A stretch of DNA of 42,781 nucleotides from Candidatus Hermodarchaeota archaeon (GTDB taxonomy: Archaea > Asgardarchaeota > Lokiarchaeia > Sigyniarchaeales > SOKP01): the NCBI GenBank assembly GCA_048885535.1, contig JBHLLO010000022.1, forward strand, positions 1 through 42,781, written 5' to 3'. The first letter of the stretch is position 1. Each line of letters opens with the position of its first letter. The notes beneath the pieces are model-generated. The model saw only the letters and a program-made list of their open reading frames with translations, searched no databases and was not told where the DNA came from. A program made the translations under genes and the position numbers. Below are positions 8,000-31,553 of this stretch, piece after piece.

Positions 8000-8530
8000 T
8001 TAAGTTTCAGCTTGACTTGCATAATATATTAACCATTTTGCCATGGCTTGGAAGGATTCATTAACATTAATGTTTTCTTTTGAAGAACAGAATACACACT
8101 GATTACATTTTGATTCTCCAGCATAACTATTAGCTATATCATAATGGACTTCATGATTAGCTAAATCCCACTTCATTCCTAAAAGAATAATTGGAATAAA
8201 TCCCGCCTTTTGCCGAATTATCCTTAACCATTCAGGTATTTCTCTAAATGTATCATAATCTGTTATATCGAAACAAATAAACGCCCCGCTTGCACCCTTA
8301 CAATAGTCTGGCAAAAGTTCTCGAAAACGTTTTTCCCCTGCAAAATCCCACAATTGCATTTTCACAGCCTCTCCGGTATCAAGAGTCTCAGATTTTGTGT
8401 GAAATCCAGCTCCTATTGTCATTTTATATCCCTCTTCAAATTTTCCGGTGCAATAACGCGTAACCATAGCAGTTTTACCTACTCCTCCCGCTCCTGCTAT
8501 AATTACCTTAAAAATCCATGAACTAAACAT
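8000..8530 (-). CDS. Rab-like small GTPase (Ras superfamily, eukaryotic signature protein)
   Basis: FKVIIAGAGGVGKT, Y..TIG..F, KMQLWDFAGEKRFR, FDIT; G4 variant MKWD; G5 CSSK; no C-terminal prenylation motif. Confidence 0.92.
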   Translation of the reverse strand: MFSSWIFKVIIAGAGGVGKTAMVTRYCTGKFEEGYKMTIGAGFHTKSETLDTGEAVKMQLWDFAGEKRFRELLPDYCKGASGAFICFDITDYDTFREIPEWLRIIRQKAGFIPIILLGMKWDLANHEVHYDIANSYAGESKCNQCVFCSSKENINVNESFQAMAKWLIYYASQAET

Positions 8531-8714
8531 CTTAACCCGATCTAAGAAGAATTAATTTAATTATAATAAGAAAGAATTTATTTTTATAATCTTCTTTAAA
8601 ATTTCGAAATAAAAATCTTATTTGAAAGTAATCTATTTGAAAATAAAAAAAGATTTTTATAAGATTTTATTCTATTATTTTGTATACTTTACAATATTAA
8701 ATTTTCAATATAAA

Positions 8715-8723
8715 AGGTTGTGA
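8715..8723 (+). promoter_or_regulatory. Shine-Dalgarno-like site for aIF1
   Basis: AGGTTGTGA matches 7 of 9 positions of AGGAGGTGA (complement of the 16S tail in this window) and lies 9 nt before the ATT at 8733. Confidence 0.5.
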
Positions 8724-8732
8724 AAAAAAAGT

Positions 8733-9074
8733 ATTAAAGACGACGATATTTGTCCTATATGTAGTTTTCCAAAAGAGCTATGTATATGTGATAGCTTAAG
8801 TGCCGACGAACAACAAATAATTATTTCTAACGATAAAAGAAAATGGGGGCGTGTGGTTACAGTTATTAAATTTGAAGGTAATTTTGATGCGAACTTAAAA
8901 GATATTTTAACTAAAGCTAAAAAGAAATGTGCTTCCGGAGGAACCGTTAGGGGAAATGAAATTGAACTCCAAGGAGATCACAAATTTAAACTAAAGAAAT
9001 TCTTGATGGATTTAGGATTTCCAGAAGAAAATATCATAATTCAGGAAAAAATTGAAGTTTCGCGTAAGGAATAA
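8733..9074 (+). CDS. sui1: Translation initiation factor aIF1 (SUI1/eIF1), probable non-AUG (AUU) start
   Basis: The frame extends 40 codons upstream of the GTG at 8853 as IKDDDICPICSFPKELCICDSLSADEQQIIISNDKRKWGR, the typical archaeal aIF1 Cys-rich N-terminus; core LK....KKKCASGGTV...IELQGDH; in-frame TGA at 8721-8723 with no ATG/GTG/TTG between it and 8853. Confidence 0.85.
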   Translation: MKDDDICPICSFPKELCICDSLSADEQQIIISNDKRKWGRVVTVIKFEGNFDANLKDILTKAKKKCASGGTVRGNEIELQGDHKFKLKKFLMDLGFPEENIIIQEKIEVSRKE

Positions 9075-9134: not shown

Positions 9135-9572
9135 ATGAGCCTAATAGTTTATAAGGTAATTTTTAATGGTTTTGAAGAAGAGGAAGAAGGGTTAGCCTTG
9201 GCTTTTAAGGAACTCGATAGTACTGAATCTTTGAGCATCAATCAAAAATATATTTCTGCACTAAAGAGTCTAAGTCAATCAAGTCAACATATTATTAGTT
9301 TTCAAAATATCAGGGAGGTAATTAAGATTGGAGAGAATGGTATTGATATAATAATTAATTATTATATTGTTTTACTTTTTGTACATAAAATAGATAATAA
9401 TAAGATGGGATTTCTTATAGGAAATGTGAAAAAAAAAGGAGACATTATATTAGGAATCTGGCCGTTCACAAAAGAATTAAGAGATTTAATAATAGAGGGG
9501 ATTGAAAGAATTCTAAATAATCTAATTTCTAAACCAAAAGATTTTAGCAAAATTTGTCTAATCTATTCTTAA
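9135..9572 (+). CDS. Hypothetical protein
   Basis: 145-aa ORF downstream of aIF1 with normal composition; no motif recognised. Confidence 0.6.
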   Translation: MSLIVYKVIFNGFEEEEEGLALAFKELDSTESLSINQKYISALKSLSQSSQHIISFQNIREVIKIGENGIDIIINYYIVLLFVHKIDNNKMGFLIGNVKKKGDIILGIWPFTKELRDLIIEGIERILNNLISKPKDFSKICLIYS

Positions 9573-31130: not shown

Positions 31131-31553
31131 TTACTTTTCTTTTATTTCTTCTCTTGCTCCACAAGCGGTACATTTAAGAAATTCTTTTTTAGCTTCACGC
31201 TGAATTTGTGTATCAGGTTTATTACAAATTTTACATAAAACATATGTCCTCGAATATTGTTCAATAAGTCTGTTAAGAACTTGTTCCTTATAGGTACCTT
31301 TTAAGAAGAGTTGTTGTCCTCGAATTTCACCCATAGTACCTGCTTTTCTTAGAAATACACCTAAAAAATGACGCCTATCTCGGTTTAGGGTATTAATAAT
31401 CCGATTAAAATTTATAATATACGTATTTTTTGACTCTATTCTAATTTGTACCTTTGGAATCTCAAATCTAGAGAGTTTCTTTACATTCTCTGGTATATCT
31501 TCATATGCACTTTCAAGAAGTTTTTCATAATCATGTAGATCCATTTTTATCAA
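31131..31553 (-). CDS. eif2b: Translation initiation factor aIF2 subunit beta
   Basis: YEKLL..AY, RFEIP, LNRD..H, YVLCKICNKPDT, LKCTACGA. Confidence 0.95.
   Translation of the reverse strand: MIKMDLHDYEKLLESAYEDIPENVKKLSRFEIPKVQIRIESKNTYIINFNRIINTLNRDRRHFLGVFLRKAGTMGEIRGQQLFLKGTYKEQVLNRLIEQYSRTYVLCKICNKPDTQIQREAKKEFLKCTACGAREEIKEK

Follow-up and report, generated by a model that had tools for sequence, protein, structure and literature searches.

The bacterial gene infC, which encodes the initiation factor IF3, starts at AUU, a codon that is very rare as a start in bacteria, and its translational autorepression has been demonstrated. Here, we describe the gene for the archaeal initiation factor aIF1 (SUI1 family) in a Candidatus Hermodarchaeota archaeon (GenBank assembly GCA_048885535.1), which lies on the forward strand of contig JBHLLO010000022.1 within the 42,781 nucleotides (nt) analysed, hereafter the window, and in which translation very probably also starts at AUU (position 8733), judging from the comparison with relatives. 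Like infC, aIF1 encodes a factor that polices start codons and appears to have its own AUU start (AUC or AUA in some relatives) behind a Shine-Dalgarno (SD) element, kept clade-wide. Unlike IF3, which has an unrelated fold, aIF1 is known here from sequence alone, whereas repression has been demonstrated for infC; moreover, the AUU of infC stands out in its genome, whereas AUH (AUU, AUC, or AUA) and CUG starts are common in this archaeal one.

The eukaryotic eIF1 is a homologous SUI1 protein with the same role in start selection and, likewise, a suboptimal initiation site of its own, its AUG lying in a poor context that provides negative feedback (Ivanov et al. 2010, cited in PMC6237735, the available text of which gives eIF1 autoregulation merely as a eukaryotic parallel). 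The two differ in that eIF1 uses an AUG in poor Kozak context reached by scanning, whereas aIF1 would use a near-cognate codon positioned by an SD element. Among archaea, the literature on S. solfataricus and P. abyssi, in the portions available, describes binding of aIF1 to the 30S subunit near the P site and rejection of near-cognate codons, and a review, in its accessible part, attributes the rejection of an AUU mRNA by S. solfataricus 30S complexes to aIF1 (PMC4705826).

Non-canonical initiation on a broader scale is also on record, with near-cognate codons making up ~30% of putative alternative sites in Haloferax (PMC7261190, as excerpted) and unusually frequent non-canonical starts in Deinococcus deserti (PMC2830850, as excerpted). 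The latter, as far as the excerpt goes, resembles the present genome in having a genome-wide excess of non-canonical starts that standard gene finders miss, and differs in being a bacterium studied by N-terminal proteomics, where ours is an archaeal family studied by comparison of genomes. In the literature searched (supplements lay outside the search), we found no mention of aIF1 starting at a near-cognate codon, nor of such starts being frequent in Asgard archaea, and the available part of a 2020 review (PMC7531240) contains none of the terms 'autoregul', 'feedback', 'near-cognate', or 'non-AUG'. The present case is that of an archaeal start-fidelity factor that is itself weakly started, set among SD-led non-canonical starts; both are of kinds known elsewhere.

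The aIF1 gene and its reading frame

The coding sequence comprises 113 codons and a TAA stop. Its product matched PF01253 (SUI1) over residues 26–97 (E = 9.6e-17; 61.7 bits against the Pfam cut-off of 25.5) and the solved archaeal aIF1 4mo0_A over residues 5–103, knuckle included (E = 5.9e-24). The latter alignment begins at residue 3 of 4mo0_A (EICPRC...), which corresponds to residue 5 of the product when counted from ATT 8733, such that the N-terminus of the present protein is two residues longer. The 4mo0_A protein (also in PDB 5jb3 and 5jbh) shares with it the CPxC...CxC knuckle and the KRxxGK loop, and the architecture is of the archaeal type, in which a Cys knuckle at the N-terminus precedes the SUI1 fold. 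A search of the organism's own assembly (91.6% complete) returned a single match, indicating one copy of the gene.

Positions 8713–8762 of the forward strand read AAAGG TTG TGA AAA AAA AGT ATT AAA GAC GAC GAT ATT TGT CCT ATA TGT. The aIF1 frame is closed upstream by TGA 8721–8723, and the first in-frame ATG, GTG, or TTG is GTG 8853, far enough downstream that the knuckle-bearing N-terminus ICPICSFPKELCIC (encoded at 8748–8789) lies entirely 5′ of it. The positions on which the original prediction of an AUU start was built (TGA 8721, ATT 8733, GTG 8853, the A8 run at 8723–8730, and GTG 8720) were all correct on re-reading.

Public annotations of relatives treat this region in several ways. At NCBI, the proteins of close relatives have MKDD(D/E)ICP as their N-terminus, with the ATT position read as Met, so a start at the AUU position has already been placed by automatic annotation at NCBI. 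ENA-derived entries of relatives (P0002, P0008) begin MW(K/R)K... or MWKKSIK, with translation from the TTG and the in-frame TGA read as W; these N-termini are an artefact of gene calling under a TGA=W code. One relative's 73-amino acid (aa) entry (P0095) starts at the codon matching GTG 8853, and further short entries of relatives (76–90 aa) start elsewhere. An exact look-up of the 73-aa and 113-aa products found neither in the protein collection.

Conservation of the start position

Matches to aIF1 were found in 131 of the 154 genomes of the order, and the 5′ regions were anchored on the knuckle, which was present in 127 of 130 loci (the exceptions being L030 and L064, at contig ends, and L096, with an in-frame stop). 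The main copies of the family make up a set of 104 loci from 12 genera. At the start position, ATT occurs in 95 of these, ATA in 5, ATC in 3, GTG in 1, and ATG in 0, and the layout of GTGA, 8–9 nt, and ATT or ATC is found in 92 of the 104, a recurrence that exceeds chance. Between the last stop and the knuckle, 97 of the 104 have no in-frame ATG, GTG, or TTG at all. The other seven have an in-frame GTG, which lies just 5′ of the AUH codon in six (inside the GTGA core in L083 and L084, and in the g12 motif AAGGTAGTG in four) and at the start position itself in one (L089).

All 33 loci of the same genus show AAAGGTTGTGA, a 9-nt spacer, and ATTAAAGA with the frame relation unchanged, while the A-run is broken in most of them (gaaaaaagagt, gaataaaaagt, gaagaaagaac, gaaaaaggagt, gaaacaagagt). 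Every one of the 40 loci from a sister genus (g22) reads TTG TGA TA[AG] ... ATT, some with TGA TAA TAG AGT ATT, and their spacers thus hold one or two extra in-frame stops (TAA, TAG), which excludes read-through from the in-frame TTG 8718. Given these in-frame stops just 5′ of the ATT, a longer product is excluded, and as the codon before the ATT is variable and not start-like (AGT, AGC, AAC, CGT, CCT, AAA, ACA), nothing 5′ of the ATT appears to be translated. The TTG itself is replaced in several loci (TCG in L068, TAG in L071, CCG in L078-80) while the GTGA persists. In sister families, the homologous position before P-K-D...ICPKC is TTG, GTG, ATG, or ATA, and the first canonical in-frame codon in relatives occurs anywhere from +45 to +318, with GTG 8853 not conserved.

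Some genomes of the family contain a second aIF1 paralogue, 60–66% identical to the main copy, which is absent from this genome. Eight paralogue loci have an intact knuckle (L053-L056, L072, L093-L095), and a ninth, L096, is broken by its stop in the knuckle. All eight place ATT or ATA 8 nt behind an SD of the GAGGTGA type, which in three of them is the full GGAGGTGA, and the GTG inside this SD is in frame with the open reading frame (ORF).

As read from these alignments, what has been conserved is the SD core and its set distance to an AUH codon, with neither a frameshift site nor an upstream frame. Initiation at AUU, as originally predicted, is borne out by the conserved start column, the upstream stops, and the lack of a canonical start before the knuckle. 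A normal AUG in close relatives, named beforehand as the observation that would speak against it, was looked for and occurs at the start position in 0 of the 104 loci.

Leader, Shine-Dalgarno element, and promoter-like block

The SD-like sequence AGGTTGTGA occupies 8715–8723 and is separated from the ATT by a 9-nt spacer (8724–8732), with the A8 run made up of A8723 and the start of this spacer. Within the wider element AAAGGTTGTGA fall TTG 8718 (in frame, with TGA 8721 next) and the out-of-frame GTG 8720. As this assembly contains no 16S rRNA, six genomes of the genus supplied the anti-SD; the 16S 3′ end reads ...GGATCACCTCCT in six of six loci. Its duplex with the aIF1 element comprises 3 bp, a 2x2 mismatch, and 4 bp (−7.9 kcal/mol). 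Across 1008 ATG-first ORFs of this genome, G is enriched at −11, −10, and −8, corresponding to GGTG(A) at −11 to −7 and a 6-nt spacer, and the spacers behind GTGA are most often 6 nt long (50), followed by 7 nt (35) and 9 nt (21). The 9-nt spacer of aIF1 is therefore longer than the genome mode, and, on the sequence comparisons made here, its initiation site is weak in three respects: codon, SD, and spacing.

Further upstream, a MAFFT alignment of 29 upstream sequences from nine genera showed conservation of 80% or more in the columns of a block at 8645–8684, in contrast to its flanks. From the usual geometry of archaeal promoters, we infer that this block comprises a B recognition element (BRE), a TATA box, and an initiator region, and that transcription may start near 8684, giving a 5′ leader of ~48 nt. 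Contigs of other strains diverge just upstream of 8646, which fits a synteny break at the promoter edge.

A leaderless mRNA, which would have its TATA box ~26 nt upstream and no SD, was considered and rejected, as the TATA-like block (8654–8662) sits 71–79 nt 5′ of the ATT and the upstream profile genome-wide has an SD signal and no fixed TATA signal. Folding of 8700–8800 gave no significant RNA structure (z = −1.5; 17 of 200 shuffles folded as well), and a sigma-70 and terminator scan, with models not relevant to archaea, gave nothing useful.

Near-cognate starts across the genome

In 57 ORFs of at least 120 codons, the frame is closed by the TGA of a GGTGA immediately upstream. ATG, GTG, or TTG occurs within the first four codons in 33 of them, mostly at the codon with a 6-nt spacer. 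For 17 of the other 24, a near-cognate codon stands exactly at this 6-nt-spacer position (ATT 10, ATA 5, ATC 1, CTG 1), and the remaining seven have no clear start. The wider survey covered 2616 coding-like, non-shadow ORFs, with 192 GGTG-served positions in the first six codons after the upstream stop. These positions hold ATG 38, TTG 24, and GTG 6, alongside ATT 29, ATA 19, ATC 8, and CTG 4, i.e., 68 canonical and 60 near-cognate codons, and these seven codons are the only ones enriched there (ATT odds ratio 2.7, p = 1e-5; ATA p = 4e-3; ATC p = 5e-3; CTG p = 4e-3). The same seven codons at internal positions, used as a control, gave ratios of 0.78–1.20. A separate scan for ORFs lacking a start gave 310 candidates, 103 after the shadow-ORF filter, and 66 that were coding-like; each of these 66 (out of 2616) has 30 or more consecutive coding-like codons that include no canonical start.

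Examples in this genome include PheT (ATT), IscU (ATC), an HdrA-like gene (CTG), and a LarA-like gene (ATA), and their start columns were compared over a panel of 30 genomes of the family. The IscU column, directly before Y-S-E/D-K-V, holds ATT 12, ATA 8, and ATG 6 of 26 (four paralogue-level rows having been dropped), and the PheT column, before P-T-I/L, holds ATG 20, TTG 3, ATA 3, ATT 1, and CTG 1 of 28. On this comparative evidence, the orthologue columns confirm that near-cognate codons act as starts. Two further control genes gave little: a DsrE-like gene yielded only paralogue-level matches (33–55% identity) and was left out of the counts, and an Fe-ADH-like gene matched in only three of the 30 genomes.

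Taken on these counts, AUU, AUA, AUC, and CUG open about one third of the SD-served gene starts in this genome, and aIF1, with its AUU, follows a near-cognate habit of the whole lineage. As such starts are common at ordinary genes, AUU does not mark aIF1 out.

An adenylosuccinate-synthetase-like ORF (so labelled from its EGKGKFVD and GGNNAGHT motifs) opens right after a TGA on the reverse strand of contig C4 (offset 53471 on the reverse complement). Within this ORF, neither a canonical nor a near-cognate codon precedes the P-loop-like motif, and an ATG ATG lies one base out of frame just upstream.

Does the aIF1 start serve a feedback loop?

The best overall explanation, which we consider probable, is an intact, single-copy aIF1 with an AUU start at 8733 that falls within the habit of its lineage. 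What the AUU does for the gene can be read in two ways. In the first, to which we would give close to an even chance, it holds expression low just as the lineage's many other near-cognate starts would, and aIF1 exerts no feedback; the genome-wide enrichment of near-cognate starts favours this, as does the interchangeability of the PheT and IscU start codons among relatives. It leaves unexplained, however, the absence of ATG in the 104 aIF1 loci and the ATA and CTG starts that only aIF1 has in genomes with a canonical PheT.

The second, nested within the best explanation, is a stronger form in which the AUU has been kept specifically as a sensor and a high aIF1 level would repress its own mRNA. 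We put this forward tentatively, on comparative hints. The main copies of aIF1 have ATG in 0 of 104 loci, against 20 of 28 for PheT, 6 of 26 for IscU, and 15 of 24 for the LarA-like gene (for which 7 of the 24 could not be resolved); the paralogues with an intact knuckle also use ATT or ATA throughout (8/8); and four other initiation-factor genes of this genome (aIF1A, aIF2 alpha, aIF2 beta, and aIF6) start at ATG, including the aIF2 beta gene in the same window (31152–31484, reverse strand). The discrimination against AUU described for the S. solfataricus factor (PMC4705826, in the part available) also favours it.

Searching the Asgard phylum returned a match in 282 of 301 genomes, from which 70 loci were examined and 62 had the knuckle. 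ATG is the apparent aIF1 start in about half of these 62, with GTG, TTG, CTG, or ATA in the rest. Thirteen of the 62, from seven further families, have no canonical in-frame codon before the knuckle and would start at ATA or CTG, and wherever PheT was matched in those genomes (12 of them), it has a canonical start. The zero count of ATG, the recurrence of ATA and CTG, and the ATG starts of the other factors are, taken together, compatible with selection for a weak aIF1 start. The SUI1 proteins of four families (f11, f16, f21, f24) have no N-terminal Cys knuckle and carry a different N-terminal extension.

Several points weigh against feedback and against reading the site as special. The weak site is not exceptional in its own genome (60 near-cognate against 68 canonical among the 192 positions), and if aIF1 discriminates between the codons that start about one third of SD-served genes, this discrimination must be mild; indeed, with IscU and PheT starting at AUH, the aIF1 of this lineage must tolerate such codons, which weakens the premise of the loop. 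Conserved weak starts are not unique to aIF1, given that IscU keeps AUH in 20 of 26 genomes and the HdrA-like gene, a metabolic one, has long held TTG (24 of 29, with ATG 4 and ATT 1). In at least ten Asgard families, aIF1 starts at ATG. The usable control genes number five, the relatives are not independent samples, and the PheT phylum panel (29 genomes: ATG 21, GTG 3, TTG 2, ATT 1, and two that could not be resolved) was selected partly by the aIF1 result. The original prediction of an SD-like motif 9 nt before the ATT stands as to its position and its conserved GTGA core, but the pairing energy of −7.9 kcal/mol ranks only in the top 8–9% of gene-upstream and of random 22-mers alike. The literature searched also held no archaeal experiment on such a loop.

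In keeping with the infC and eIF1 type, aIF1 has a near-cognate start of its own, an SD with two mismatches, a 9-nt spacer, and a conserved site. The feedback that was originally proposed gains from the zero count of ATG, the seven families, and the ATG starts of other factors, but AUU is not distinctive in this genome, and we regard a dedicated aIF1 feedback through its own AUU as possible, though somewhat less likely than not. The proposed link between the bacterial and eukaryotic mechanisms likewise holds as an analogy only.

Alternative start sites

GTG 8720 lies +1 out of the aIF1 frame and opens a five-codon frame (VKKKY*) that ends at TAA 8735–8737. A start at this GTG, followed by a programmed +1 frameshift or by termination at the TAA and re-initiation at the ATT, is very unlikely. 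The GTG is invariant in the main copy, and the TAA overlaps the ATT by one base, both of which would suit such a route, but the spacer varies freely with no conserved slippery site, the TAA is lost where ATT has become ATC (L057-59), the paralogues, L083, and L084 have the GTG in frame and a spacer of 8 nt, and the GTG lies inside the SD with no SD of its own. A prfB-type programmed +1 frameshift in particular was rejected, with no conserved shift site and the zero-frame stop lost in the ATC variants.

Still less likely is a start at GTG 8853, giving a knuckle-less protein of 73 aa, or one at TTG 8718 in which TGA 8721 is read through, giving 118 aa. Public gene calls of both kinds exist in relatives, as noted above; however, protein-level conservation covers the knuckle and the 40 codons that precede 8853, a region that also aligns with the solved aIF1, GTG 8853 is not conserved, and TTG 8718 is lost in several genera, with g22 adding TAA or TAG after the TGA.

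An assembly error, in which a true A7 would put GTG 8720 in frame (M-K-K-S-I-K-D), can be practically dismissed, as the +1 offset between GTG and ORF is found in all 92 GTGA-N8-9-AT[TC] loci, most of which have no homopolymer, the g22 spacer contains TAA or TAG, and contigs from three of four DNA runs (X1–X3; Logan assemblies from one study, maybe of the source sample, which are short, mix related strains, are not raw reads, and weigh little next to the comparison of loci) span 8713/8717 to 8776/8801 with no gaps or indels. The A7-or-A8 check that had been advised for the AUU claim was thus favourable to it, with no A7 form seen in the relatives with an interrupted A-run or in the run contigs across the A8.

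Features of the locus

The coordinates of the aIF1 locus are collected in Table 1. A Ras/Roc-family small GTPase gene (8000–8530, reverse strand; Pfam E = 3.7e-39) lies next to aIF1 in divergent orientation, and a 145-aa ORF directly downstream (9135–9572, forward strand) had no Pfam match at E ≤ 0.01.

Table 1. Features of the aIF1 locus (window positions) and the evidence for each.
Feature	Position	Strand	Evidence or remark
Promoter-like block: purine run, TTTTTATAA (8654–8662), TCTATTA, TTTTGTA	8645..8684	+	Conserved columns in MAFFT alignment
Imperfect SD element AAAGGTTGTGA	8713..8723	+	Core GTGA (8720–8723) kept family-wide; pairs with 16S 3′ end
Out-of-frame mini-frame GTG AAA AAA AAG TAT TAA	8720..8737	+	Stop overlaps ATT; judged incidental
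A-rich 9-nt spacer AAAAAAAGT, predicted untranslated	8724..8732	+	Variable letters, fixed length among relatives
aIF1 (SUI1) coding sequence	8733..9074	+	PF01253 and 4mo0_A matches; single copy in assembly
Predicted ATT start codon (AUU, Met by initiator tRNA)	8733..8735	+	Position conserved in family; N-termini of NCBI relatives; 4mo0_A alignment
Cys knuckle CPICSFPKELCIC (CxxC...CxC)	8751..8789	+	Translation; aligns with CPRCGLPKELCVC of solved aIF1; 127/130 order-level loci
GTG, first canonical in-frame codon	8853..8855	+	Pick of ATG/GTG/TTG-only gene finders, giving 73 aa lacking the knuckle

Proposed mechanism and implications

We propose that aIF1 is translated from a transcript with a leader of ~48 nt, on which the 30S subunit would be placed by the imperfect SD AGGUUGUGA with its over-long 9-nt spacer. 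The initiator Met-tRNA would then pair with AUU despite a third-base mismatch, yielding a protein that begins M-K-D-D-D-I-C-P. The weak SD, long spacer, and near-cognate codon would be expected to keep aIF1 output low. Feedback is possible in such an arrangement: rejection of near-cognate codons is the task of aIF1, whose own synthesis may therefore fall as its level rises. On a broader and more doubtful view, which we consider unlikely, the level of near-cognate initiation across the proteome of Loki-type Asgard archaea could be under homeostatic control, with the AUU start of aIF1 as the sensor.

In practical terms, gene finders restricted to ATG, GTG, and TTG cut aIF1 to 73–90 aa with no zinc knuckle, or imply a TGA=W code, and similar truncation probably affects several per cent of the genes in the family. 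A start-codon proofreader whose own start appears near-cognate, in more than 100 Asgard species, makes the infC/eIF1 logic directly testable in archaea. Should the feedback be real, IF3, aIF1, and eIF1 would self-regulate through a weak start in all three domains, and the archaeal lineage nearest to eukaryotes would run a relaxed, tunable start-codon stringency. Frequent AUH and CUG initiation in the archaeal relatives of eukaryotes bears on the origin of stringent AUG selection.

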